From NCBI GenBank assembly GCA_002336035.1, contig DDED01000073.1, positions 3,799 to 67,798 of the forward strand: 64,000 bases of DNA. Direction: 5' to 3'. This document shows, piece by piece, positions 45,387 through 64,000 of this stretch. Below the pieces are notes generated by a model. It had not been told where the DNA came from. It did no database searches and saw only the letters and a list, made by a program, of their open reading frames with translations. Each line of letters starts with the position of its first letter. The stretch's first letter is position 1. This DNA is from Cellvibrionales bacterium UBA1963. GTDB taxonomy: Bacteria > Pseudomonadota > Gammaproteobacteria > Pseudomonadales > UBA7434. A program made the position numbers and the translations under genes.

Positions 45387-46226
45387 TTAAGAGCAGTCTG
45401 GATTAATCTTATAATGGTCGCAAATAGCTTGCCACTGAAGGCGGTTACCGTCTTCCTGTATATTCGTTTTGGCAAGGGCACCTCTCTTCGCACCGATAAT
45501 AGGAACAGGTTTTTCTGCCGGATTGGATGATCGCTTAACGGAGACCCCATTCAGCAAGCTCATGGCTTTAAACCAAAGGTCGTCAGCGTTAGGCGATAAA
45601 TGCATGTATAGGTCTTGGTTTATTGTATCGCAATGCATTACACCAATTGGGTATAAAACACCACCATAACCAATAGGCAAAAAATTTGGTGAGGAAATAT
45701 TTGCAGTTTGAATTGAGGGCCAGTCTGTGTAGGGCAAAAGTTCATTGCTTAGTGCGCGTATTTCTCGGCACTCATGGGCGATTATGCTAAGAGGGTACTG
45801 TAGATGGTCTTCGTACAATCGCTGCAACCACTTTTCATGATACATCGCATCATCGTCGCATGTCACAATAACATTGCTACTAAATTCTTGTAATGAAAAG
45901 ATGAGTTTTCTGTGTGGGCATTGTTGATCTCGAAACCTTATCTCAAAAATTTCACCTTCTAACTGCAAAAGTGACTTGGGCAATTTCACTTTTAAAGAAT
46001 GGTTTAACCACAAAATAATTTTAGAAGGTAAATAACTTTGTGAGAGCAAACTTTTAATGACTAAATGTAGGCCGCCTAAGCGAGGCTCAATTGAAGTCAA
46101 AGAGACTACACAGTCAACATTCACCCTATCGTCAGCAATGAAAGTATATCTTTTAAGCTTATAAGCCCGGATAAATGAGGGGAGGTATTCTTTAATCTTC
46201 ACTCCCAGCTCCTTTCTCTTCCACAA
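45387..46226 (-). CDS. Putative glycosyltransferase (GT-A-like, DDD motif)
   Basis: 279 aa. VVSLTSIEPRL..L...I.SLL.Q...P.KIILWL and VTCDDDAMY. The track start is a TTG and the true start is uncertain. Confidence 0.5.
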   Translation of the reverse strand: MWKRKELGVKIKEYLPSFIRAYKLKRYTFIADDRVNVDCVVSLTSIEPRLGGLHLVIKSLLSQSYLPSKIILWLNHSLKVKLPKSLLQLEGEIFEIRFRDQQCPHRKLIFSLQEFSSNVIVTCDDDAMYHEKWLQRLYEDHLQYPLSIIAHECREIRALSNELLPYTDWPSIQTANISSPNFLPIGYGGVLYPIGVMHCDTINQDLYMHLSPNADDLWFKAMSLLNGVSVKRSSNPAEKPVPIIGAKRGALAKTNIQEDGNRLQWQAICDHYKINPDCS

Positions 46227-46647
46227 TTCGCATTCATTGAATGAAGCCCAAAATATACTGTTGATACGTCGAATACATCTTAACAGTATGTTTCTCTAAA
46301 GTATGTTCGGTAATACTGTCCATATTGATAAAAAAATCACATGTAGGCTCCCTGATTAAAAATTGAATTTTAAGGCATATTAAACAGAACGACTCGGTGA
46401 AATTGAATTTTATGAAACACCTGACCTATGTTAGCAACTATTGATAATTTACCTTGATAATAGCAAATATTGTATTTTAAAAACACCAACATGTCACAGA
46501 CTTACCGTGAAAAATTCATATGGATTTTTAACAAGAAAAACTAGCGACATCACTTGCTAGCAATATTAATCATCAAGATACAATGAAGAGACAATCTGTT
46601 TTAATGGGAGAAAATTAATGAGCAAAGGTTTAATTGTTACAGCGAAT

Positions 46648-47616
46648 CTAATTCTTATACGCACTGACTAACCCTTTCAGAGCAGAATTAATTTGAACGA
46701 TGCGTAAAATGCTCTTCAAGTCATACACACGATTATTTATAAGGCCAAGCAAAGATATTTCCCACATCTCTATTTGCCTCTTTAAATCATCAATCACAAG
46801 TATTGTCAAAGTAAAATCGTCACTGCTTAATTCTCTTGCCGCTTGATGCACTGTTTTAATTAATAGCTTAAAGTATGATTTTTTTTGAGACTTAGTCATA
46901 GCATAGCACCCTAGTTGATTGACACTATTAAACCATTCTTTATATGATCCTGATTCATATTTTGATTGAGCGACTCCATCTGATCGAATATTATAAAAAT
47001 ATACATTTTTATTTATCAACACCATTTTTGTTGCTTTAGCAGCGACTGAAGCCATAAAAATTAAATCTTCAGCCATTCTCACACCAACGGGAAAAGAAAT
47101 GCCATTCAGTGCTGATTTCAAAAAAATCTTACCCCATGAATGACCTCTTATTTGGTTATGTTTAAGTAACTCTGTGAAAATAGTCTCATCTAAGTATATC
47201 TTTTCTTTATTAACATTATACGAGGCAGGAAAACATATACCGTTTTTGCACAGCTCATTGTTGCCCTTGACGATATCTGCGTTATGAAAAATAGCGGCAT
47301 TGAACAACGTACGTAATGCGTTACTGGGCAAGAGGTCATCGGGGTCAAAAAAAATTATGTATTGTCCTGTTGCTTTAATCATGCCAATATTGCGCGTAGC
47401 AGATACGCCTTTATTAACGGAGTTTTGAATTAAGGTTATTTTATTACTGTGACGTTCATAGAGATGAGTACAGACATTAATGCTATTGTCTGTACTGCTA
47501 TCATCGACAAGTATTATCTCGTATTCACCAATGAAATCCTGATCAATCAGACTTTTTATACTCTTTAATAAATAACGATCGACATTATACACTGGAACGA
47601 TAATGCTAATATCCAT
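46648..47616 (-). CDS. Glycosyltransferase family 2
   Basis: 322 aa. MDISIIVPVYNVDRYL...EIILVDDSSTDNS...YIIFFDPDD. Confidence 0.88.
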   Translation of the reverse strand: MDISIIVPVYNVDRYLLKSIKSLIDQDFIGEYEIILVDDSSTDNSINVCTHLYERHSNKITLIQNSVNKGVSATRNIGMIKATGQYIIFFDPDDLLPSNALRTLFNAAIFHNADIVKGNNELCKNGICFPASYNVNKEKIYLDETIFTELLKHNQIRGHSWGKIFLKSALNGISFPVGVRMAEDLIFMASVAAKATKMVLINKNVYFYNIRSDGVAQSKYESGSYKEWFNSVNQLGCYAMTKSQKKSYFKLLIKTVHQAARELSSDDFTLTILVIDDLKRQIEMWEISLLGLINNRVYDLKSILRIVQINSALKGLVSAYKN

Positions 47617-47675
47617 AAACCACCTGAATTTGAAAAGTCAAAAGCTTAATAAACCAACAGGATAATCTAGAGACA

Positions 47676-48512
47676 TTATTCTGATAATAGACCTTTTGTA
47701 ACGGATTTTATTAATTCGGCTCTTTTAGAAAACACACCAAACTCACCTTTTCTATTGCGCAAGATTCGATTTACTTCCCTCAAGTAATAGTATATCGATT
47801 TATACTGCCCAAATACTCTCCGTATGATAACACCCTTTGAGTACGAATTATTATTACTAATGACTGTACCTGTTGAATCATCTGGGTGAATGTTTACGCA
47901 AATTGAATGATGTAAAACACGACCGCCAGCACGCTGAATGTCAGCTATAAGAACGGACTCTTCACCCATTGTAATTTTATTGTCACCTACGCCCATGTCT
48001 TCACGAAAAGAGATTTTTTTTTCTTTTAGATAGTGCACATCAATAATCATTTCAAATGAAGCATATCGTAAAATATTTTTTCCGCTCACAGGCGACAAGT
48101 CAATGGGGTATGAGGCCCTTTTATTACCTGATGCAGTAAGCGATTCATAGGTGTGACAGGCAATATTTACCCCGTGTAATGTATTCAAAATCTTTAGAAT
48201 ACATTGTGGGGTGAATACAAGGTCATCGTCCATAACCCACATGTAACGTGTACTTATAGCCTCAATTGCTATATTTCTGCTTTTTGTAACACCTATAGAA
48301 GTATCCCTTATATAACCAATATTAGGATGCTCCTTTATGGTTTTCATGACTGAATAACTGTCGTTACATAAATTTATATTCTTCGGGGTCTGGTGAATAA
48401 TCAAAAATTTTATTTGATTCGACTCAGCATTATCTAATGAATTATAAACATTTAGAGCACCCTTAATACGATTACCAAATGTTGAGCATGCAATGGTTAA
48501 ATCCTGGCTCAT
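47676..48512 (-). CDS. Putative GT-A-fold glycosyltransferase
   Basis: 278 aa. LTIACSTFGNR..., VTKSRNIAI...YMWVMDDDLVF (DxD). Confidence 0.55.
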   Translation of the reverse strand: MSQDLTIACSTFGNRIKGALNVYNSLDNAESNQIKFLIIHQTPKNINLCNDSYSVMKTIKEHPNIGYIRDTSIGVTKSRNIAIEAISTRYMWVMDDDLVFTPQCILKILNTLHGVNIACHTYESLTASGNKRASYPIDLSPVSGKNILRYASFEMIIDVHYLKEKKISFREDMGVGDNKITMGEESVLIADIQRAGGRVLHHSICVNIHPDDSTGTVISNNNSYSKGVIIRRVFGQYKSIYYYLREVNRILRNRKGEFGVFSKRAELIKSVTKGLLSE

Positions 48513-48735
48513 TTCAGCAGCCTATTTAAATGCTTTTTAGTCATAAAAAATCTCTTCATAAAAAAACTGCTTTTTATTTAGCAAAAATTAAAAAAGGCCT
48601 ATATTCTTTTTTCTATAAAATGGGTGACAACCATACACTCTGTTATTAAAAATAACGCTCAAATTAAAATTTTCAAAACCGATCGATTAGACCTAAGTTG
48701 TTCGCTTTGACATTATAACTAACTATTTACTGATG

Positions 48736-48774
48736 GTATTCAAGATATTACATGAAGAGTAATATCTTGAATAC
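48736..48774. repeat. Perfect 16-bp inverted repeat with a 7-nt spacer
   Basis: GTATTCAAGATATTAC-atgaaga-GTAATATCTTGAATAC, read directly from the sequence. It lies mid-way in the 585-bp divergent spacer between 48512 and 49098. Confidence 0.9.
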
Positions 48775-49097
48775 ATGACTATGACATAAACCATACAGCA
48801 TGTTATAAAGGAAAAAGACTATACTATCAAAAAATTACCATCTAACGCACAATTATATTTTTATTTTCACGTATAAGTGAAGTTTAAATATTCAATATTG
48901 ACAGTATAGATACAGATTTTTTACAGACGTGATTTTATATTAATGGTTATTCAGTACTTATAAGAGATTTTTAAAGTAGATAAGATTTTCTTCTATATTT
49001 TATTATATGTCGGCTTCATTTTGAAAGTTAGCAATTCAACCATTTATCGATAAAGCACCATACTGCTATTTCCCAACCGAAAGAGACGATATAGAAT

Positions 49098-49931
49098 ATG
49101 ACAGCGCACACAAACGGTAATATAAAGTTATCTTTTTGCTCAACAATCATGAATAGGCGTGAATCGCTAAAACAAACGTTACTCGCCAATCTTGAGATGA
49201 TTGCTCATTACAACGGAATAGCCGAATTAAATCTGATTAATTTTATCAAAGATAAAGAAGGTCAAAAAATACATGATTGGATATTAAACTTAGGGACTCG
49301 CCATCATTTCAACTACTTTGTTTGTACTGAAATGAATTTTTGGCACGCCTCTACTGCAAAAAATACCAGTCATATGGTCGCGTCAGGTTCGCTTCTAATC
49401 AATTTAGATTGCGATAATTTTATATCAAAAAATGCCCTCGATCAGTTAGCATCTTTTTCGAGCAGTCAACTCAGCAATACAATTTATCTTGGCTATACAG
49501 GCACGGTAGAGCGAAATTATTGCCCATTAAGAAACAAGAATCTCAAAGTAAAGTATAAATTTAAATCTAAAAAACCTTTTGACGGCTCTTTCGGTCTTAT
49601 GGGTTTTCCTTCACACCTATACAAAAAGATTGGTGGTTATGATGAGCAATTACCGCCAATGGGCGGCCAAGATAAAAATCTTTTTTTGCGCGCTATTGCT
49701 GCAAAACCAGAAATAATGGTTGTCCACATACCTTCTTTTCATGACCCTATACAAAACACAAAAAATGACGGCCTTATTAATATTGGCATTCCCAATTATC
49801 ATTGGAAAAAAAATGAACGAAGCGCTTATAAAAGGACTAAATATGTTCTTAGAAAGGATTTATTGCAGGCAAATATCGATAAAACTATAGGGCTTAATGT
49901 GATTAATGGCTACGCTTATGAATGTGATTGA
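49098..49931 (+). CDS. Putative GT-A-fold glycosyltransferase (galactosyltransferase-like C-terminal region)
   Basis: 277 aa. KLSFCSTIMNRRESL, LINLDCDNF (DxD), IGGYDEQLPPMGGQDKNL resembling the Glyco_transf_7C pattern. Confidence 0.55.
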   Translation: MTAHTNGNIKLSFCSTIMNRRESLKQTLLANLEMIAHYNGIAELNLINFIKDKEGQKIHDWILNLGTRHHFNYFVCTEMNFWHASTAKNTSHMVASGSLLINLDCDNFISKNALDQLASFSSSQLSNTIYLGYTGTVERNYCPLRNKNLKVKYKFKSKKPFDGSFGLMGFPSHLYKKIGGYDEQLPPMGGQDKNLFLRAIAAKPEIMVVHIPSFHDPIQNTKNDGLINIGIPNYHWKKNERSAYKRTKYVLRKDLLQANIDKTIGLNVINGYAYECD

Positions 49932-50520
49932 AATCATGGCGCAAGGCTTCTAGGTTCACCATTAATAAAAGTTGACGTAACGTAAAATATTAGTAGTGTC
50001 AATTGTCCTTACTACTTTGAGATTATATACAGAAACATTACCCTGCCTTTTCACCTTTGATATGACAATCCAAATATATATAGCGTCAAAAATAATGATA
50101 TATAGCTTTAAGGCTACCCTTATCAACCGCCCCTATTAACCACGTGCTAACGCCTACGGTTGTACGTGTAAGTAGTTATGCTCATTCACCTTGACTATAA
50201 AAATTCGTGAGTATCCAGAAATGATTTTATCTACTCTATCCGCATCAAAGACATACTAATAAAAAAAGCACTTGCAATGAGTTTTGCGGCCGTCGCGAGT
50301 TTTGTTAGCGCTTAACTTGAATTTGAAACAGGGCCTCTTACCGATAAAAATTATGATTTTAACGGTGACTTTGTCTTGTGTGTATGACTTCAGGTATGTG
50401 CGACTTAACTGTCCAGTGACACTGTAAATTCATGTAAAAAATAATGATCGATGAATTACTTAAAATAACATCATTGTTATGCTGATTAAAATTTTATTGT
50501 GCCACCAATAGGAAGCAAAT

Positions 50521-51288
50521 ATGGATCTTGATAAAAGACTGCCAATTTACGTCTTGACCATAGAGCCACCAACCGGACTGCGACGAGTACACTGTGAAAA
50601 ACTCTTTTCCAAACTTAATTTACATTTTAATTTTGTCAATGGAATTAAAAGTGGCAACTCAGAAGTCAAATATATATATTCAAAAACAAAAAATATATTT
50701 TTCTCAAAGCGAAATCTTACGACGTCTGAAATAGCTTGTTATTTTGGATTTAGAAAAATATGGCAGGCATTTCTCGATACCGGTCAACCGGTATGCTTAA
50801 TAGCCGAAGATGATATCAATATTATCAATGAAGATGATTTTAAGAACGTTATCATTCATGCTCAAGATAACGCAGCATGGGACATACTTAAATTATTCGA
50901 CTTTAAACCTAAGAAAATTCTTAATCGAGAGAGTTGGAACTCTCTTACAATTGCTGATTACAAATACCCCTCTTCAGGATGTGTTGCTTATCTAATTACG
51001 AGAAAAGCAGCTCAAAAATTGCTTTTACGTAAAAAAATATACCGCGCAGTTGATGAGGACTTTTCACATTGCTGGGAGTTTGGCTTACGAGTTAGATCGG
51101 TAAGTCCCAATCCTGTCACCGAAAACAGTGACGGCCTTGGTGGTTCATATATTGAGAAAGACAGATTATTAGAGAAAGGAAGTGTTTATATGGTACGAAG
51201 TATTTGGGGAATTTTTCTGCAAATGAGAAAACAGATATTGGGATTTTTTTATAGGAGAAAATTAGCGTCACATCAAAAAATCGTGTAA
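50521..51288 (+). CDS. Glycosyltransferase family 25 (LOS/LPS beta-glycosyltransferase type)
   Basis: 255 aa. IYVLTIEP...RR......L...NLHFNFVNG..., LTTSEIACYFGFRKIW, LIAEDDI. Confidence 0.75.
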   Translation: MDLDKRLPIYVLTIEPPTGLRRVHCEKLFSKLNLHFNFVNGIKSGNSEVKYIYSKTKNIFFSKRNLTTSEIACYFGFRKIWQAFLDTGQPVCLIAEDDINIINEDDFKNVIIHAQDNAAWDILKLFDFKPKKILNRESWNSLTIADYKYPSSGCVAYLITRKAAQKLLLRKKIYRAVDEDFSHCWEFGLRVRSVSPNPVTENSDGLGGSYIEKDRLLEKGSVYMVRSIWGIFLQMRKQILGFFYRRKLASHQKIV

Positions 51289-51326
51289 TAAATACTGACA
51301 TCTCCTCAAAGAATTTAATTAACATA

Positions 51327-52048
51327 TTACCCTCTTAAAGCCATTATTTCTCTTTTCATCCCCTCAATTAATTCTTGAGTAGTTATATCTACAGCTATTA
51401 GGGACTCATAGCCATTTTTTGTACTCCCCCATAACTGATGTGCATAAACAGGATCAGTGCCTGAGTAATATTCACCGGTATGATGTATCGGCAAAAAAAA
51501 TGGCTTGGTAAGATCGTGGCTGTCTCGGAAAAGGAAATCAATTTTGTCAGCAATTTAGGACCAGTAACCTCCCAAGCCTTATTTTTTTTGTATTTCCAGT
51601 GCATAAAATTATATTTATAAGCAATGTGTTTTTTACTTAATAAAAAATTCATTATTCTTTTGGCATCTTTTGAACCGATCTCACAACCCACTATACCATT
51701 GCTGATTAAGCCCTTCCTAACCGTTTCGTTTTCATAGCTTGCAAAAAAACTACAATCACTGAGCCAATCTGGAAGTGTAGCTAAAGAAATTAAATCTGCA
51801 TCTACCGTGTAACCGCCATATTTAGCTAAAATTTCCCAACGCATAAGATCAGCAACCCCACATAACTGATCTGAATCCCACATCTCCTTCATTAAATCCT
51901 TCAATTTCCAGTCATGAAAATGAAACTCATTATTCCTCCATATTATAATTTCCCAGCCAGGATGATTGACTTTCCATGTGTCGATTACTATATCCGGGCA
52001 ATTACTCTCATCGCCTACCCAAACAAAATTTAGTTTCTTAGGTATCAT
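51327..52048 (-). pseudogene. DXD-motif sugar-binding glycosyltransferase (Gly_transf_sug/capsule-synthesis-like), frameshifted in an A8/T8 tract
   Basis: The track ORF 51398..52060 ends in the implausible tail ...ILPSHFFCRYIIPVNITQALILFMHISYGGVQKMAMSP. After the T8 run (complement of 51493-51500) the adjacent frame reads LPIHHTGEYYSGTDPVYAHQLWGSTKNGYESLIAVDITTQELIEGMKREIMALRG*, with its stop at 51327-51329. One extra T would fuse the two parts into a 240-aa protein counted from the ATG at 52048. Confidence 0.7.
51493..51500. repeat. A8 homopolymer (T8 on the coding strand) at the frameshift point
   Basis: Counted directly: gc-aaaaaaaa-tgg at 51491-51503. Confidence 0.95.
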
Positions 52049-52328
52049 TACTTTACCCACTGATTGCTTTAATCTGTAATGTTATAATATTGTTATATAC
52101 GGCCATGGTAATTTAATAATTTCATAGCCTTACAAATTTTTAGTAAATTTATGTAAAATAAATATCAGTTACCTCAACCAAAACACATGCGTTTGCTATT
52201 CTTATGTAGAATTTTTTTTTTGAAATTATGGTTGCTTTTTGATGTTGCAGTTCACTAGGTTTTTATATACAAAACACCCTGCCAACAATTTACCATCGTT
52301 AGATTTGTTCGCCGGTTTATATAAATTA

Positions 52329-52733
52329 ATGATTAAAACATCTTGTGAGTGTCAGAATATAAAAGTTGAATGCGATTCTAAATTGCTATCTCGCATTGCA
52401 AGACAGTGTAATTGTAATTATTGTAAAGCGAGCCAAGCTGAATATCTAAGTGATTCAGATTCAAATGTGACATTTGAAATTACAGATTTCGAAAGCTATC
52501 GGCTTTCACAGAATGGGTATCCAATCGCAAAGCTTCATGAGTGTAATAATTATGGTGTAATATTGGTAACATTTAAAGTTGAAGGGCAGCTGTACTGTGT
52601 TATTAATGCTAAAGCTTTGCGAGTCAACGGTTACACGCTAGATGGTACATTAAAGGATTACAGTAATGAATCAAATGAACAAAGGCTATCTCGGCGTAAA
52701 AACAATTGGTTTAAAGCCGTTCAAGTCACATAA
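52329..52733 (+). CDS. GFA/CENP-V-family Cys-rich protein (glutathione-dependent formaldehyde-activating-enzyme-like)
   Basis: CxC...CxCxxC pattern (SCECQNIKVE...QCNCNYCKAS). Start set to the ATG at 52329, giving 134 aa; the track ORF starts at 52239. Confidence 0.4.
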   Translation: MIKTSCECQNIKVECDSKLLSRIARQCNCNYCKASQAEYLSDSDSNVTFEITDFESYRLSQNGYPIAKLHECNNYGVILVTFKVEGQLYCVINAKALRVNGYTLDGTLKDYSNESNEQRLSRRKNNWFKAVQVT

Positions 52734-52897
52734 AGGTCTAAGACTGCCGGACACTGCATACTTTTTTGACACCACATATTGAGCAAAGGAATGTTTACTT
52801 AGATAAATACGTCGCTTTAATCGCGTTCTGATACCAAAAAAAATCAGCTACCCGCGGAATTTACATTTCATAACAACCAACTTCTTTAGGAGTTATT

Positions 52898-54151
52898 TTG
52901 GTACGAGCGCCCTACTTTCATTCCAATGTAAATTATTCTAAGGCAGGATATTTTTTTCTTCTGATTTTTTCTTTTTTAGCCTTTTCAGGTATTAGTCCTG
53001 CACTAGAAAGAATTTCATTTTTTATTTTGTTGTGCATTACATTAGCCAACTTCAATCGTTTTAGCTTTAAAAAGATTAATCCGATTCTTTTATTAAGCTT
53101 CACTTGGTTTATATACATATGGCTTAATACTTTTTTTCATCTTGCTGTAAACGATTTTTTAGTATTTTCTGATAGAGCAACTCTCTTGAATCGAGGGAAA
53201 GATTGGTCATTGATCGCCTTTTTCCCAATTGTGTCGCTGTTTCTGAATAGCGATCAACGCAGAAGTACTTTTATTTTATTTGCCGGAATTGGATTGCTCG
53301 CTTCAATCATATTATCATTCAAAAATTTAAATATTGTTGATTTTTTTCATATCCAAGCGCGCTATGGATCCACGCACTCCATTAATCACTTTGCCTTATT
53401 TATCGGAACCGCATTAATTGGCGCTGTTGTATTTGGCTCTCAACTTCTTGAAAAAAATAAGTATGGATTTTTTTTATCCATATTAGTCGCTTCTTTTTCT
53501 ACTTTTCTTTTAGTTAAAACCCAATCAAGAATGTCATGGTTGGCAATTTCATTCGTCATGATTTTCATTTTTCTTATGTTTTATTTTTTTAAAAAAAAGG
53601 GCTCAAAAAAACCATCAATTATCAATTTTGCTTTTATTCTGCTACCCTGTTTTTTTGTGATTTTGTTTTCACAATCTATTTTAGAGTATCGGCTTAGCGC
53701 CAAAGAGCCAGTCATTCGACATGGCATTGTCTCGGCAGATCATTCTATCAATGGCCGTGTTGAATTATTCAAATTTGGTTATGAAAAATGGCTTGAAAAG
53801 CCATTTTTTGGACATGGGCCCATAGATTCTAAAATCTTAATCTCCCAATCAGGTAGCAATTATATAAGTGAGCTATGGCACTTACATAATACTTATCTTG
53901 AAGTCATAGTTTGCTGGGGCATTGTTGGGCTTGTTTTATGTGCAATCACAATATTTTTACTCCTGAAATCTGTTTTTTTAAGCTTGCTCAGAAATGAGGC
54001 CTCACCGATACACTGCTTATTCTTTTTATCATCGATATTATATTGGTTACTCTGGCTAGTAGCAGAGTTTAATATTTATCGGGATACTGGACAATATTAT
54101 TGGCTAATGTTAGCCGGATTAGGCTATAGTATTTATCAAAAAAATAATTGA
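52898..54151 (+). CDS. waaL: O-antigen ligase family protein (Wzy_C domain)
   Basis: 417 aa, about 10-12 TM helices. AGGAG RBS followed by a TTG start. A periplasmic loop followed by WHLHNTYLEVIVCWGIVGL, typical of the ligase family. Confidence 0.75.
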   Translation: MVRAPYFHSNVNYSKAGYFFLLIFSFLAFSGISPALERISFFILLCITLANFNRFSFKKINPILLLSFTWFIYIWLNTFFHLAVNDFLVFSDRATLLNRGKDWSLIAFFPIVSLFLNSDQRRSTFILFAGIGLLASIILSFKNLNIVDFFHIQARYGSTHSINHFALFIGTALIGAVVFGSQLLEKNKYGFFLSILVASFSTFLLVKTQSRMSWLAISFVMIFIFLMFYFFKKKGSKKPSIINFAFILLPCFFVILFSQSILEYRLSAKEPVIRHGIVSADHSINGRVELFKFGYEKWLEKPFFGHGPIDSKILISQSGSNYISELWHLHNTYLEVIVCWGIVGLVLCAITIFLLLKSVFLSLLRNEASPIHCLFFLSSILYWLLWLVAEFNIYRDTGQYYWLMLAGLGYSIYQKNN

Positions 54152-58082: not shown

Positions 58083-60470
58083 TTATTGGGTTGCTGTTCT
58101 GTGACGATAAGCGCCTAAAGCCAATAATGGCATCAGTAACCAAAAGAGGCCCCCTGCAGCCATGGCGGGTACGCGTCGGGCAAGGGGTTCATCCGAAAGG
58201 CTGAAGGCCTCAATAGAAGCCATCACTTTATCTCTATCGCTAGCATCTTGATAATCACCACCAAAGGCTTGCTCTACCGCATTGGTAAAACCGTCGCCGT
58301 CAATATCGCTATCGCACGCATCACCCAAACTATCGGCATCAAGATTGGCTTGGTCAGCATTAGCCATATCAACACAATTATCTAAACTATTAAGTACCGT
58401 ATCACCATCATTGTCTTGATCGATAGTAATCGTGATCGTTTGTTCTGTAGTGCCGCCCTTATCATCTGTCACCAAAACAATAAAAGTATCAACACCTAAA
58501 TAACGCTCATTGGCTCGATAAAACCAAGTGCCACTGAACAAATTAATGGTCGCTGTACCATAAGTCGGCTTTTCTGATATTGTAAAATAGCTACCATCCG
58601 TTAGGCCATTGACATCGGTAGCCAGCAAAGTTCCTCCTGCGGACGAGCCAAGCGCAATTGTATCGGAGACTGCCCCTGTAATAATAGACGGTGACTGGTG
58701 ACTTTTTAACTTGAATTCTTTTTGGGTGAAGACATATACCGCGCCTTTTTCTCTGTCATCCAATTTAGCGCCAATTAACAATGTGTCCTGGCTAATCGCA
58801 ACAGCTGAAACAAAAAAATATTTTTTATTCACCGTTAATTTTTGAGATTCCTGCCATTGACCTGCTTTATCTTTAGTAAAAATATAGGCACTATCAGCCG
58901 ACGCTATCAAGGCTTTATCTCCATAAAGATCAATTGATTTTCCAAAATCAGAAGCTGTTCTGTGTTGGATGGATTGAACCTCTCGCCATTGCCCATTGTG
59001 GCCCTTATGGAAAATATAAACTATGGGTCCTATAAAAAGTTTATGTGCTGTTATAAAAACAGTATCGCCTTCAATCGCAACCGAATAACCAAAATCATTG
59101 GTGTTACTGGGCGAGTCAATGGTCTGCTCTATAAGCCACTGGCCACTCAGACCCTTATGAAAGACATAGACTACGCCGCTATTCGTTGGGCCGCTTGCGC
59201 TGACAATCAATGTATCACCATCTGCCGCAATAGCACGACTAAAATTATCACCTACCAAACCGGTGATCGAACTGATCTTCTGCGTCTCGTTCCATTGCTG
59301 ATCACCGTCTTGATTAAAAACAGACACCGCGCCAGAATAACCAGCACTGAAGATAAAAGGCTCTTTAACCGCGCCAACGAACGCAATGTTTTCAGCAAGT
59401 GACACCGAGCGACCAAAACCCTTCATCTCAAGATCAATACTTAGAGGGCGCAATTGACCGTTTTCTTTCCACCGACCCTGAACGTCTTTACTAAACAAAT
59501 ACACCGAACCAGAATCATCAATCCTCGAACTATTTACGGCACCAATTAAAACGCGATCATTCTCAATCGCTACTGAGGCTCCAAATTGGTCATAGGACAC
59601 GCCATCATTGGCAGTTATGATGTGATCCTGGCTATGATATACATTAAGAATACTCGTATGGGTTTGTCCGTGACTGTTACTGCCCCAACACACGACACCG
59701 GTTTCGTCGATAGCGCAAGTATGATTGTGACCGGCAGAAATTTCATCAGGTTTCGATAATTCAGGGACACTGCTTTGACCGTTAACATTATTTCCCCAAC
59801 AGACGACACCACTGTCATCTAATGCGCAAGTATGAAAGCCACCGGCAGAAACGCTGCGGGGATTAGATAACGTGGGCGGTGTCGCTTGGCCTCTATCATT
59901 GCCGCCCCAACACACCACACCGGTATCGTCCAATGCACAACTATGATAAAAACCGGCGGTTAACTTAATAGGGTTTGAGAGCAAAGGCGCGTTTGTTTGG
60001 CCGTCGTGGTTATAGCCCCAGCATTGCACTTGTCCCTCATCAATCGCACAACTATGATAATAACCCACACTGACCTGGCTCGGGCTGACCAAATCGGGCG
60101 GGTTGGCTTGACCGCTATAATTAGATCCCCAGCAATGCACACCAACCGTATCGATCGCACAACTATGGTATTGACCAGCAGCAACTTGAGTGGGGTTTAA
60201 TAACGAAGGCGACGATGTCTGACCATCATTATTAGTCCCCCAACAAACCACACCGGTGTCATCTAATGCACAACTATGGTAACCACCGGTTGATAGTAGA
60301 CGAGGGGTTTGTAAATGAGGAGCTTCATTAAGGCCATCGCGAGTCTCGCCCCAGCACAACGAACGTAATTCACCCATCGCACAACTACTGTTATAACCGG
60401 CACTTAAAAAGGGTTCGGCAAAAACAGCGCTTGCCATGCAGCCTATAACGATAACAATGAATAACCTCAT
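58083..60470 (-). CDS. Secreted/anchored double-propeller protein: 7 short RCC1-like repeats, ~6 FG-GAP-like repeats, a cadherin/Ig-like domain, TSP type-3 repeats and a C-terminal anchor tail
   Basis: 795 aa. Signal peptide MRLFIVIVIGCMASAVFA|EP. A 38-aa repeat YHSCALDDTGVVCWG.N..GQ occurs 7 times. FG.SVAI.GDT.LIGA...G.VYVF occurs about 6 times. DNCVDMANADQANLDADSLGDACDSDIDGDGF. Tail RRVPAMAAGGLFWLLMPLLALGAYRHRTATQ. Confidence 0.8.
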   Translation of the reverse strand: MRLFIVIVIGCMASAVFAEPFLSAGYNSSCAMGELRSLCWGETRDGLNEAPHLQTPRLLSTGGYHSCALDDTGVVCWGTNNDGQTSSPSLLNPTQVAAGQYHSCAIDTVGVHCWGSNYSGQANPPDLVSPSQVSVGYYHSCAIDEGQVQCWGYNHDGQTNAPLLSNPIKLTAGFYHSCALDDTGVVCWGGNDRGQATPPTLSNPRSVSAGGFHTCALDDSGVVCWGNNVNGQSSVPELSKPDEISAGHNHTCAIDETGVVCWGSNSHGQTHTSILNVYHSQDHIITANDGVSYDQFGASVAIENDRVLIGAVNSSRIDDSGSVYLFSKDVQGRWKENGQLRPLSIDLEMKGFGRSVSLAENIAFVGAVKEPFIFSAGYSGAVSVFNQDGDQQWNETQKISSITGLVGDNFSRAIAADGDTLIVSASGPTNSGVVYVFHKGLSGQWLIEQTIDSPSNTNDFGYSVAIEGDTVFITAHKLFIGPIVYIFHKGHNGQWREVQSIQHRTASDFGKSIDLYGDKALIASADSAYIFTKDKAGQWQESQKLTVNKKYFFVSAVAISQDTLLIGAKLDDREKGAVYVFTQKEFKLKSHQSPSIITGAVSDTIALGSSAGGTLLATDVNGLTDGSYFTISEKPTYGTATINLFSGTWFYRANERYLGVDTFIVLVTDDKGGTTEQTITITIDQDNDGDTVLNSLDNCVDMANADQANLDADSLGDACDSDIDGDGFTNAVEQAFGGDYQDASDRDKVMASIEAFSLSDEPLARRVPAMAAGGLFWLLMPLLALGAYRHRTATQ
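59655..60401 (-). repeat. Seven tandem ~114-bp coding repeats (RCC1-like blades)
   Basis: The periodicity is seen in the protein: the CWG motif recurs at aa ~39, 76, 113, 150, 187, 224, 261. The DNA copies have diverged. Coordinates are approximate. Confidence 0.7.
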
Positions 60471-62521
60471 TGTTTTACCCTTAGCCTTACTGCTTTCATC
60501 CGGAACAAAGCAACTAATGTCAGTGATACAGCTAAGCCAGCCAAGCCAAGCCAGCCCATTAGAGGAACGTTCTTTGCCGTTGTTTCTAAGTTACTGTAGC
60601 GCTCAAGCGCTCGTTGAAGCACATCAATGTCATCCTTATCGCGAGGATCGGTCTCAAATTTATTTTCAATGTTATTTGAAAAGCCATCGCCGTCAATATC
60701 GATATCACAGGCATCACCACGATGATCCGCGTCAATATCGATCTGAGCATGATTTTTTATAGCGGGGCAATTATCGTAGGCATTATCTATGCCGTCTTGA
60801 TCATCATCTGAAGGCACTAAAGGCCGAGCGTCATCACCGTCAGCAATACCGTCATCATCGGTGTCACGATCATAAGGGTCTGCGCCAGCCATTAATTCAT
60901 CACCATTATTCAAACCGTCTTCATCGTAGTCCTGCCGAGCGCTTACTGTGATAATAATAGTCACGCACTGAGTATTATTATCCTCATCGGTCACGCATGC
61001 TCGAACTTGGTACTTTCCATCTGCTAACGTGAGGTTTATCGCACGACTATTATCCGTTTCGGGCGTATAATTGTTAGTTCCTACACGCCGATAGGACCAA
61101 TTAATTGTGCGAATTACACCGTCTTCTTTATCTTGAGCTTTAGCGCTAAAAGGTTGATCGACACTTAAATAATCAAAGTCTTCTTCTGGTGCAGTGATTG
61201 TGATTGTGGGCAAGGTATTTTGTGTCACATTGACACTAAAACGTTCAACCCCTGTATTACCATCACTATCAGTTGCCGTGATTGTGATGTATGACTGACC
61301 TGACGCATTCGCTAACGGTGTGAGCGACAAGACTCTCAAAATATCATCGGTGCGACTTTGTCCGTCGAAAGTCCCCGATATAACCAATTGACTATTGGGA
61401 ATAAGGGCTTCATTCGAAGAGCGAGCAATTAAACCCATTTCAAAGGTACTACTCAACCCATGATTTAATGCATTGTCATTATCAAATATTGAAAATGACA
61501 CTTTACCAACAGAACCGCTCAATAAATCTAAAGGGGCAATTCGACTCAATACTGGTTTATCCCCCGCGCCATGCGTTAACCAGCCTATATCTGCTAATAA
61601 TCCTTTTGCTAAACCGATGCTGTTATAAAGCACGCCAGAAGAAATCGCTGGCTCCATTAATTCATTGGGCGATAAGAAAGAGCTAAAGTGCGCACCAGAA
61701 CTGCCTGACTGGTAATTGTTAGGTGCGTAAATACGCGGGTGTCGGAAACCATCAAACTGATTAAAACCAGAAACGAGTTGCTCACTGCCGTCACGAACAT
61801 TATCACCAGACCAGCAAACGTGTGGCGCATTAATGAGTGAATCTTTTCGTTGACTTGCATTCATGTCAGACCAGAGTAATGGCTGATCATGATCATGATC
61901 ATGAACTAAAGAGGAGTAAATGTCGGGTACATCGTAAAACCATGTCCCATTTTCGAAAGAGAATTTAAAAGCAAAACCGAGTCCATGAATAATTTCGTGC
62001 AGAATTATATTCAGCAAACTGTACTTGTTTGAGGGCACGCTACCAAACCCATAGTACCAAGCAGTGCCACTATTAAAATCCATAAAAAAGTCACTTATAT
62101 TAGGCGACCTGTCTTCTTTTAAATATTGATTAGCCAATGGCGCAAGGTAAAATGTTTTGTCTCTCGGGAATTCGGGTAAACCAGAAAAGCCACCGTAACT
62201 GCCTGCTTGGGCTAACGTATTGCCGGAGAGGGGAATGAATTTAGCATTGATATCAATATCAATGCGGATATTGATAATACTGGCAATGATGTCCGCTGCG
62301 TAGTCAAACACCAACGCTCTCTGCTGACCAATGGTTGACCCTGAATTTCCGTCAATAGCCGATGCTGGCGTTTGATCATTAAACCCCTCATTAGGATTAT
62401 CAAGATTAATAACATTGACCTTGCCCGCTAAAGCGAATGAAGGTGTTAAAAACAAACAAACACCAAACACAATGGCGATAAATTCGTTATAAAATGAACA
62501 AGCCTTTACCGTATTAATCAC
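60467..62521 (-). CDS. Secreted/anchored HExxH zinc metalloprotease (leishmanolysin-like pattern) with Ig-like domains, TSP type-3 repeats and a C-terminal anchor tail
   Basis: 684 aa. Signal peptide ...VCLFLTPSFALA|GK. HEIIHGLGF at 61985-61999 (HEIIH). Downstream GAHFSS...NELMEP. DNCPAIKNHAQIDIDADHRGDACDIDIDGDGF. Tail KNVPLMGWLGLAGLAVSLTLVALFRMKAVRLRVKQ. GTGA and ATGA overlaps with the neighbouring genes. Confidence 0.75.
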   Translation of the reverse strand: MINTVKACSFYNEFIAIVFGVCLFLTPSFALAGKVNVINLDNPNEGFNDQTPASAIDGNSGSTIGQQRALVFDYAADIIASIINIRIDIDINAKFIPLSGNTLAQAGSYGGFSGLPEFPRDKTFYLAPLANQYLKEDRSPNISDFFMDFNSGTAWYYGFGSVPSNKYSLLNIILHEIIHGLGFAFKFSFENGTWFYDVPDIYSSLVHDHDHDQPLLWSDMNASQRKDSLINAPHVCWSGDNVRDGSEQLVSGFNQFDGFRHPRIYAPNNYQSGSSGAHFSSFLSPNELMEPAISSGVLYNSIGLAKGLLADIGWLTHGAGDKPVLSRIAPLDLLSGSVGKVSFSIFDNDNALNHGLSSTFEMGLIARSSNEALIPNSQLVISGTFDGQSRTDDILRVLSLTPLANASGQSYITITATDSDGNTGVERFSVNVTQNTLPTITITAPEEDFDYLSVDQPFSAKAQDKEDGVIRTINWSYRRVGTNNYTPETDNSRAINLTLADGKYQVRACVTDEDNNTQCVTIIITVSARQDYDEDGLNNGDELMAGADPYDRDTDDDGIADGDDARPLVPSDDDQDGIDNAYDNCPAIKNHAQIDIDADHRGDACDIDIDGDGFSNNIENKFETDPRDKDDIDVLQRALERYSNLETTAKNVPLMGWLGLAGLAVSLTLVALFRMKAVRLRVKQ

Positions 62522-62988
62522 GGCTCAATCATCGGTAATGGACTTGTAATATCGATGATAATATTTTTACCGTCTTTATTAACCAAGCCAAGCGGCACCG
62601 AAAAATATCTTTTTTCATGCTGATAACTCATGCCTCCACCCATAGGCATTTTATTCACAACGAAATCTGAAGGGTTTAAGAGTGAATTAATCTTTCTTCT
62701 TTCTTCATTACTAACCTGTGCGTCAAGCAGTTCTTTCATGTTAAGGTCGACCATCGCTGCTGGCTGCGAGTCATTCACCGTCGCGAGTGCGGATTCATCG
62801 TGTCCAAGCTTGGCATCAACATCGGTTCGTTGGCCATTATCATTCTGCGGGGGAAGCCGAGCAGGCTGATTGCTCTTATTGATATTTTCTTTCTCCTGTT
62901 CACTCATTTTTTTTTCTGACACCACCCAAAAATAAGATCCAACGCATACAATATACACCGCCGCGATTATCAAAAAACTATTTTTCAT
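62518..62988 (-). CDS. Small N-terminally anchored protein of unknown function (first gene of the operon)
   Basis: 156 aa. N-terminal hydrophobic segment FLIIAAVYIVCVGSYFWVV, a low-complexity charged linker and a C-terminal ~60-aa region with no motif I recognise. Confidence 0.55.
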   Translation of the reverse strand: MKNSFLIIAAVYIVCVGSYFWVVSEKKMSEQEKENINKSNQPARLPPQNDNGQRTDVDAKLGHDESALATVNDSQPAAMVDLNMKELLDAQVSNEERRKINSLLNPSDFVVNKMPMGGGMSYQHEKRYFSVPLGLVNKDGKNIIIDITSPLPMIEP

Positions 62989-63704: not shown

Positions 63705-64000
63705 TTATATCGATACCGCTAACACTCGATGCAACTCATCTTTAGTGGTAAGACCGCGGCTTATTTTTTCTTTGCCTGCATCGACTAAGCTTTGCATGCC
63801 GTTCAAGACCGCCTGCTGCTTAAATGCAGCCAAGTCAAAAGGCAGCGTAATGCATGCTTTAATTTTATTGTTACAGTCTAAAATTTCATAAATACCTTCA
63901 CGGCCTAAATAACCGCTATTTCGGCAGCATTTACACCCTACTGATGTTGCAGCATTAGTAGGCTCACTGCTTGTTGTATGGTGGTTGCTGTTAACGTTCT
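63705..64000 (-). CDS. GspE/PilB-family secretion ATPase, C-terminal 97 aa (the gene continues past the right edge)
   Basis: Not in the ORF track. My translation of the minus strand (frame from 63998) gives ...SVGCKCCRNSGYLGREGIYEILDCNNKIKACI...AVLNGMQSLVDAGKEKISRGLTTKDELHRVLAVSI*. The C..C..GY.GR.GIYE motif and the G.TT..E..RV ending are typical of T2SS/T4P ATPases. Confidence 0.7.
   Translation of the reverse strand, partial: NVNSNHHTTSSEPTNAATSVGCKCCRNSGYLGREGIYEILDCNNKIKACITLPFDLAAFKQQAVLNGMQSLVDAGKEKISRGLTTKDELHRVLAVSI

Follow-up and report, generated by a model that had tools for sequence, protein, structure and literature searches.

Introduction

Many unrelated secreted proteins in a single genome carry the tripartite C-terminal signal of the PEP-CTERM/exosortase system (XrtA, EpsH). 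Exosortases have been reported to cleave PEP-CTERM, archaeosortase A has been reported to remove PGF-CTERM with attachment of a lipid, and the pairing of GlyGly-CTERM with rhombosortase has itself been confirmed (Haft, bioRxiv 10.1101/2023.06.07.544157). Our literature search on IPTL-CTERM, VPLPA-CTERM and XrtH found almost nothing, and the only experimental anchor that emerged is a surface S-layer protein of Methylomirabilis lanthanidiphila that carries an IPTL-CTERM (PMC8671808). Here we describe a class of C-terminal tails related to IPTL-CTERM, two members of which are encoded by neighboring genes in a 64,000-nucleotide stretch of the genome of Cellvibrionales bacterium UBA1963 (contig DDED01000073.1). 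This whole stretch is called the window below.

Exosortase H (XrtH) is annotated in TIGRFAMs as specific for IPTLxxWG-CTERM. The existence of a 'midcut-by-XrtH protein' model in NCBIfam (NF033207) shows that, for curators, IPTL-type motifs and exosortase H already belong together; this pairing is computational. An earlier reading of the window, referred to as the original prediction, had proposed a candidate sorting signal at the ends of the two neighboring proteins. Its statement that no dedicated enzyme has been established for IPTL-CTERM was too strong, given the NF033207 model.

Results

Two neighboring proteins share a C-terminal module

The two proteins, P1 and P2, are encoded at 58083-60470 and 60467-62521. 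As the original prediction had claimed, they are otherwise unrelated neighbors with a common C-terminal module: the BLASTP alignment between them extends over no more than the C-terminal 109 residues (39% identity, E=6e-19), their N-terminal portions are unrelated, and the C-termini quoted at the time are exact. The span assigned to the feature, 58086-60931, was right in taking in all of P1 and fell short for P2, of which it includes just the final ~154 residues. P2 and P1 overlap by 4 nucleotides (nt), and P2 is overlapped in turn by a small upstream open reading frame (ORF), so the three genes form one operon. Its features are as follows (aa, amino acids; TSP3, thrombospondin type 3 repeats).

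58083..60470, minus strand: P1, 795 aa; signal peptide (MRLFIVIVIGCMASAVFA/EP), six RCC1 repeats, five FG-GAP repeats, Big_9, TSP3, linker, sorting-type tail
58086..58424, minus strand: C-terminal module of P1, residues 683-795; Ca-binding TSP3 repeats, short linker helix and tail
58086..58172, minus strand: tail of P1; VPAMAAGG motif, helix LFWLLMPLLALGAY, basic end RHRTATQ
60467..62521, minus strand: P2, 684 aa; signal peptide, LGF-type metalloprotease-like domain, Ig/PKD-like domains, TSP3, linker, sorting-type tail
60470..60817, minus strand: C-terminal module of P2, residues 569-684; TSP3, linker and tail
60470..60568, minus strand: tail of P2; (KN)VPLMGWLG motif, helix LAGLAVSLTLVALF, basic end RMKAVRLRVKQ
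61973..61999, minus strand: HEIIHGLGF, putative zinc-binding motif of P2, residues 175-183, read from the sequence
62518..62988, minus strand: small membrane-anchored protein, 156 aa; first of the three operon genes, 4-nt overlap with P2

The motif starts 29 aa from the C-terminus in P1 and 33 aa in P2. Both tails retain V, P, M and G(+7), where the Pro of the motif is +1, and both proteins have a signal-peptide-like N-terminus as scored by a heuristic in place of a dedicated predictor. Among the ORFs of the window, the combination of VPxM, helix and basic end is found in P1 and P2 and in no others.

The tail recurs on unrelated secreted proteins

We gathered relatives by scanning GTDB species genomes with the module and then metagenomes with the canonical tail; fetched loci are numbered L### and representatives or homologous proteins P####. 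The ending [VI]P[AM][MV]GG[IL]GLLALGLSMLGLGAVRLRKK is found on more than 100 distinct genes from genomes and metagenomes of marine Cellvibrionales/Pseudomonadales. Over all fetched loci and the metagenome scan, this amounted to 145 tail-bearing ORFs with 107 distinct tails in 168 loci, which establishes that the tail is not confined to the window. The consensus of the class is [VI]-P-[AM]-[MV]-G-G-[IL]-G-LLALGLSMLGLGAV-R-x-R-[KR]-K. All named source genomes are metagenome-assembled or single-amplified genomes of marine Cellvibrionales or Pseudomonadales, and the window sequence itself was recovered solely in Tara Oceans and other marine assemblies.

A profile search of 1.84 billion cluster representatives found the tail in 76 of 143 new 50%-identity representatives, among the 150 matches listed. 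The 1156 matches of that search do not measure the size of the class, because the TSP3 columns of the profile drew in giant proteins rich in TSP3. Word-indexed searches with the module or the tail gave mainly short fragments. The representatives include both window types, namely a P1-like tail (P0189, an independent representative that ends with a near-copy of the P1 tail) and P2-type tails (P0120, P0127 and P0136). Orthologous P2-type tails of the form EKNVP[LMF]MG... occur in P0001, P0002, P0120, P0127, P0136 and L010.

The GTDB species-genome scan also recovered an orthologous operon in Pseudomonadales bacterium AM-377-L22 (L010). Its small ORF shares 49% identity with the 156-aa ORF of the window, its P2 ortholog is 45% identical over 666 aa and ends KNVPMMGFLGL...RRRL, and its third gene encodes an FG-GAP protein with the canonical VPAMGG end RAVPAMGGIGLLALGLSMLGLGAVRLKKK.

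To place the window tails relative to this class, we used a hidden Markov model (HMM) constructed without window-type tails. Among 522 six-frame ORFs of the window, it ranked P2 first (E=4.4e-4) and P1 second (6.6e-3). On the isolated tails it gave 19.6 bits for P2 and 18.3 bits for P1, compared with maxima of 10.6 and 10.3 bits, respectively, over 1000 shuffles. By these profile scores, the window tails are divergent members of the class.

As a yardstick for sorting-signal classes we used the eight attributes set out by Haft in 2023 (bioRxiv 10.1101/2023.06.07.544157), and the class shows all eight as far as sequence can tell. For attribute 1, the motif begins 26-40 aa (median 27) before the C-terminus in 97 non-identical ORFs. 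Attribute 2 is seen in the presence of up to four tail genes per locus (L019, L060, L136, L147), two in the window, and seven or more per genome in the fragments analyzed from AM-377-L22 (L010 and L019) and AB_MB238 (L025 and L060). Positional conservation across the 97 ORFs (attribute 3) is V/I 99%, P 100%, A 78%, M 78%, G(+4) 90%, G(+5) 76%, I/L 86% and G(+7) 100%. A strongly hydrophobic helix and a basic cluster follow (attributes 4 and 5), with R 81%, R 86%, K/R 91% and K 65% in the terminal stretch of the class consensus; in the window the basic end is clear in P2 and weaker in P1. The heuristic finds a signal-peptide-like N-terminus (attribute 6) in 64 of 83 tail ORFs compared with 363 of 1501 control ORFs.

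With the C-terminal 130 aa removed, 2703 of 3570 passenger pairs (76%) have no similarity, and the passengers fall into 28 architectures (attribute 7), with the caveat that TSP3 repeats also lie just upstream in 75 of the 97 tails. Passenger Pfam domains include Peptidase_S8 (subtilase), GH10, polysaccharide deacetylase, CBM4/9, CBM5/12, pentapeptide, DUF285, FG-GAP and RCC1, among others. Finally, homologues of the P2 passenger end in GlyGly-CTERM-like tails, type IX secretion system (T9SS) C-terminal domains (PF18962, PF13860) or dockerin-like ends (attribute 8). The tripartite, sorting-type layout that had been read from two proteins is thus recurrent on unrelated secreted proteins.

One tail gene of the FG-GAP/Big_9/TSP3 type (L171 5484-8920) is split into several short pieces beside a phage-type integrase island, an apparent case of pseudogenization or of assembly frameshifts.

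The tail peptide is under selection

Paralogues of the IPMVGG subclass encoded by the same genome share ~25% identity in their passengers and 78-93% in their tails. The same codon is used at only 10-30% of conserved tail residues, compared with 40-50% in the passengers. Tails that are so alike and yet differ in their codons are under purifying selection at the level of the peptide. Synonymous turnover in this subclass is normal. In a divergent P2-type lineage, the KNVPxMG motif is retained while the helix drifts, which argues for a functional motif.

The commonest subclass (NK[NQ]VPAMGGIG...) is nearly codon-frozen, with a nucleotide identity of 0.80-0.96 within the 81-nt tail and background values outside it. 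This 80-96% identity holds across 62 different genes (L090-L168, L010-L060), with near-fixed codons ATA, TTA, TCG and AGG, and conservation falls to background right before the V-P codons and past the stop. A long DNA repeat was ruled out as the source of the likeness, since nucleotide conservation is limited to the 81-nt tail, and RNA structure was ruled out as the source of codon uniformity by a fold z-score of -0.05. Orthologues among L019, L020, L025 and L063 are 85-94% identical. A likely source of the codon freezing is that the subclass expanded recently, with gene conversion, inside a single genus-level clade.

The class grades into IPTL-CTERM

We compared the tails with curated models of C-terminal sorting signals, using cutoffs of 20.5 bits for IPTL-CTERM (TIGR04174), 25.35 for VPLPA-CTERM (TIGR03370), 15.5 for GlyGly-CTERM (TIGR03501) and 20 for MYXO-CTERM (TIGR03901). 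Synthetic consensus sequences served as positive controls and all were detected: PEP-CTERM at 35.8 (NCBIfam) or 40.4 bits (Pfam), VPLPA-CTERM at 48.8 and GlyGly-CTERM at 30. The best model for the class, and one that aligns in register, is IPTL-CTERM, which matches 30 of 70 diverse tails with a best E of 5e-08. The scores are graded, and some variants pass the cutoff:

IPTLGHVG... (L147): 33.0 bits, passes 20.5
IPVVSHVG... (L136): 26.4 bits, passes 20.5
IPTMGGIGLLALGLSMLGLGAARFRKK, the IPTMGGIG variant (L125): 22.2 bits, passes 20.5
VPVLGG...: 19.5 bits, below 20.5
canonical VPAMGG...: 15.6-18 bits, below 20.5
window P1 and P2 tails: no match

The cutoff-passing variants of L136 and L147 share gene clusters with sub-threshold tails. 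In addition, the 'midcut-by-XrtH protein' model touches 11 of the 70 tails. The closeness to IPTL-CTERM suggested by the original prediction therefore holds for the relatives of the window tails. Class and family have in common the tripartite layout, the length and the register, [IV]-P-x-x-x-x-x-G followed by a helix and an R/K cluster. They differ in that the canonical motif of the class is VPAMGG(I/L)G, its helix (GLLALGLSMLGLGAV) is far more uniform, and its hosts are uncultured marine Cellvibrionales/Pseudomonadales. Against the signature IPTLxxWG, P1 reads VPAMAAGG and P2 reads VPLMGWLG: only P(2) and G(8) remain, and the W of P2 stands one position early.

Other members of the PEP-CTERM superfamily are also close. 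Genuine PEP-CTERM proteins fall into the same register as the tail profile (VPEPASIGLLALGL compared with VPAMGGIGLLALGL). The PEP-CTERM models (TIGR02595 / PF07589) match neither window tail and only 1 of the 70 class tails (E=0.58); the class differs from that family in having no Pro-Glu-Pro motif, and the window in having no exosortase of an exopolysaccharide locus nearby. VPLPA-CTERM is a PEP-CTERM variant that likewise opens with VP. Its model matches neither the window tails nor the canonical VPAMGG tails, and it reaches 2 of the 70 class tails at E~0.7. The link to VPLPA-CTERM drawn in the original prediction has a counterpart in gene order, however, because VPLPA-type genes adjoin tail genes in two related loci. 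In L010 (808-1338), a small secreted true VPLPA-CTERM protein (30.6 bits compared with the cutoff of 25.35) is encoded by a gene that overlaps a VPAMG-tail gene, and in L105 (1013-1849) a gene directly after a VPAMG-tail gene encodes a small secreted protein whose VPLPA-type tail was read from the sequence. This adjacency indicates that two flavors of the PEP-CTERM superfamily are present in the same genomes. Together, the graded IPTL-CTERM scores, the in-register PEP-CTERM proteins and the VPLPA-CTERM neighbors point to a lineage-specific, mostly sub-threshold branch of IPTL-CTERM flavor.

The remaining families are more distant. GlyGly-CTERM/rhombosortase resembles the class in its marine gammaproteobacterial hosts, its Gly-rich start and similar passengers; the class differs in its conserved V-P ahead of the glycines, and TIGR03501 matches 0 of the 70 tails. 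MtsC, a MYXO-CTERM protein (NF047638), likewise has TSP3 repeats followed by a C-terminal sorting tail, and both window proteins match its model through TSP3. Neither window tail has the invariant Cys of MYXO-CTERM, however, and TIGR03901 gives 9.6 bits on P1 (cutoff 20). That score and 11 bits for WGxxGxxG-CTERM (cutoff 24) are the best curated scores on the window tails.

A different conserved tail, VP[VA]T[GS]LIGLGVLA.AL..SG..NIRRA.K.G, is found on proteins of ~570-584 aa (L010 2254-4008; a 565-aa ORF in L143). The L010 protein has a Tat-like N-terminus (RRGVLKGAA), and its tail matches no curated CTERM model.

Passengers, operon and gene surroundings

The passenger part of P1 matches RCC1_2 (3.5e-44), FG-GAP_2 (8.5e-39), Big_9 (an Ig domain) and TSP_3 in Pfam, and it groups in a cluster of 21 among the tail-bearing proteins. 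P2 matches NF038122 'metallo_LGF' weakly, at 30 bits compared with a cutoff of 80, over residues 139-185. Protease domains of this type are often PEP-CTERM-tagged. The HEIIHGLGF motif of P2 has the zinc-protease pattern HExxH..G, with Phe in place of the third His of metzincins. A search of solved structures in the PDB found no relative of the P2 passenger.

In L010 and L169, the ORF immediately upstream of the P2 homologue is a small one, homologous to the first gene of the operon. Proteins of 156-172 aa thus precede and overlap P2-family genes in three lineages (window 62518-62988, minus strand; L010 4725-5243; L169 9490-9999). They share a conserved C-terminal domain, RYFSV.I.L.D..GK.I.IDIT.PLPLL. 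The small protein belongs to no Pfam family and matches the protease inhibitor BamI only weakly (E=0.063); it may serve the P2-family protease as a dedicated inhibitor or chaperone. Another gene, ~700 bp upstream of the P2/P1 operon and in the same orientation, encodes a solitary MshE-type ATPase (MshEN and T2SSE; 63705-63998, minus strand, running on past the window; L001 3822-5696), which stands outside any pilus or type II secretion cluster.

Polytopic membrane proteins of the window are limited to MAPEG, UbiB, TatC, an MsbA-like ABC transporter and a Wzy_C protein. Its housekeeping genes are pilMNOPQ, aroK/aroB, a PBP1A-type penicillin-binding protein gene, priA, argS, hslVU, ubiE/ubiB, hisIE and tatABC, and it also holds a glycosyltransferase cluster resembling those for lipopolysaccharide core or O-antigen. 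Positions 46001-54000 have a low GC content (0.33-0.35 compared with 0.41-0.48 elsewhere) and carry several GT2 and GT25 glycosyltransferases, a pyruvyl transferase and Wzy_C (O-antigen ligase/polymerase-type). This region looks like a lipopolysaccharide core/O-antigen-type island and was possibly acquired horizontally.

We also considered polytopic ORFs near tail genes in other loci as candidate sorting enzymes. They proved instead to be MFS/XylE-like, GPH, SSS and BCCT transporters, a K+ channel, DsbD, YccA and an undecaprenyl-diphosphatase, and one further candidate was a spurious antisense frame. Two other kinds of membrane protein stand near tail genes. One is a 188-aa ORF with ~6 transmembrane helices between two tail genes (L095 1422-1985), a single occurrence with no family match and no recognizable catalytic motif. 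The others are proteins of 500-583 aa with four N-terminal transmembrane helices and a long coiled coil, which recur near tail genes (L110 4029-5777, L160 7678-9426, L112 1047-2537); the two types are 26% identical and have no NCBIfam match.

Discussion

The class exists, takes in the two window tails and grades into curated IPTL-CTERM; by all the sequence criteria that we applied, it behaves as a sorting signal would. We favor, with moderate confidence, the reading that the P1 and P2 tails are divergent members of a large marine Cellvibrionales/Pseudomonadales sorting-signal class that forms a mostly sub-threshold IPTL-CTERM branch of the PEP-CTERM superfamily. By analogy with its curated relatives, the enzyme that reads the signal would most likely be an XrtH-like exosortase encoded elsewhere in the genome. 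The predicted N-terminal signal peptide would take P1 and P2 across the inner membrane by the Sec pathway, after which the C-terminal helix would retain the protein in that membrane, with the basic cluster on the cytoplasmic side as expected from the positive-inside rule. At the periplasmic face, an intramembrane sorting enzyme, most likely an exosortase of the XrtH type, would read [VI]Pxx..G, cut off the helix and hand the protein to an envelope anchor, as exosortase and archaeosortase systems suggest. The passenger would then be displayed at the cell surface, presumably spaced off it by the Ca-binding TSP3 repeats.

Several observations weigh against assigning the window tails to IPTL-CTERM and an exosortase. 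The model searches proposed with the original prediction were run, and no curated C-terminal sorting model reaches its cutoff on the window proteins or on their bare tails; IPTL-CTERM gives no match to these tails even at E<=10, which places them outside the curated family. The canonical form lacks the T, L and W that mark IPTLxxWG, the helices of both window tails are degenerate, and the basic cluster of P1 (RHR) is weak. Our literature search found no report of experimental cleavage of any IPTL-type tail. Lastly, the original prediction was correct that the window encodes no exosortase, rhombosortase or sortase. No CPBP protease is present either, the 9 kb past the end of the window are equally devoid of all four, and we found no sorting enzyme in ~565 kb of tail-bearing loci or in the gene context of P0046 and P0016.

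The lack of an enzyme near tail genes is what would be expected if the tail were a plain, uncleaved C-terminal anchor that keeps proteins facing the periplasm on the inner membrane and needs no dedicated enzyme, and the helices of the window tails are divergent, as if hydrophobicity alone counted. We nevertheless consider such an anchor unlikely. The [KR]N-VP-x-M-G stretch just outside the helix is the best-kept part of the P2-type lineage, in which the helix drifts, and across unrelated passengers the helix is 88-95% conserved per position and under peptide-level selection. Moreover, the GH10, CBM and subtilase passengers act on extracellular polymers, in homologues the place of the tail is taken by ends of T9SS, GlyGly-CTERM-like or dockerin-like type, each of them a device of the cell surface or of secretion, and some variants score above the curated IPTL-CTERM cutoff. 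Chance likeness between two low-complexity hydrophobic C-termini, which short and hydrophobic tails might invite, has already been refuted and carries a negligible probability: the shared module aligns at E=6e-19, the orthologous L010 operon has the same tail type, and the class HMM gives 18-20 bits compared with a shuffle maximum of 10.6 (1000 shuffles).

If the tail is indeed cleaved, the reader could belong to another family. GlyGly-CTERM and rhombosortase are common in marine Gammaproteobacteria. A rhombosortase-type signal, in which the Gly-Gly after VPAM is functional and a rhomboid-family cleavage with a lipid-type anchor precedes type II secretion, would fit the frequent glycines at +4 (90%) and +5 (76%), the AAGG of P1, and the GlyGly-CTERM-like ends of P2-passenger homologues in other lineages (for example GSGSSGGGNAAWLLITAIALLRRKR). 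We regard this as quite unlikely, because TIGR03501 misses every tail while detecting its synthetic control, the best models are IPTL-CTERM and PEP-CTERM-family models, and invariance falls on P(+1) and G(+7) rather than on the GG pair, where P2-type tails have a single G (VPLMGW); the enzyme, too, was found in no locus. An enzyme family that is neither exosortase nor rhombosortase and has yet to be described, as for MYXO-CTERM before myxosortases were found, would account for a canonical tail that stays under every curated cutoff and for the absence of a linked enzyme in ~565 kb, and orphan sorting signals have precedent (Haft, bioRxiv 10.1101/2023.06.07.544157). This too appears improbable, as individual gene clusters hold a continuous gradation from these tails to IPTL-CTERM variants above the cutoff and PEP-CTERM proteins fall into register with the tail profile, both of which argue for an exosortase-type reader. 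A bolder version, which we consider doubtful, would take the VPAMGG tail not as a drifted IPTL-CTERM but as the mark of a distinct, dedicated surface-display system that has an undescribed and unlinked enzyme to itself. It would present TSP3-spaced hydrolases, proteases and adhesin-like proteins of abundant uncultured marine degraders of polysaccharide and protein, and its codon-frozen 81-nt cassette would have spread by gene conversion.

What is new here is a large unannotated IPTL-type branch in uncultured marine Gammaproteobacteria, with two degenerate members in the window; its mechanism is probably ordinary and reveals no new kind. Tail-bearing proteins are currently annotated solely as 'thrombospondin type 3 repeat-containing' or 'hypothetical', and this conceals one surface-sorting tag common to probably dozens of enzymes and adhesin-like proteins in each genome of a group of uncultured marine heterotrophs. 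Recognizing the tag offers a path to a new or widened HMM and to cleaner prediction of surface proteomes, with their GH10, CBM, subtilase and metalloprotease passengers that bear on polymer turnover in the sea. The class also provides a well-populated query for phylogenetic profiling of the IPTL-CTERM/XrtH pairing, which is still purely computational.

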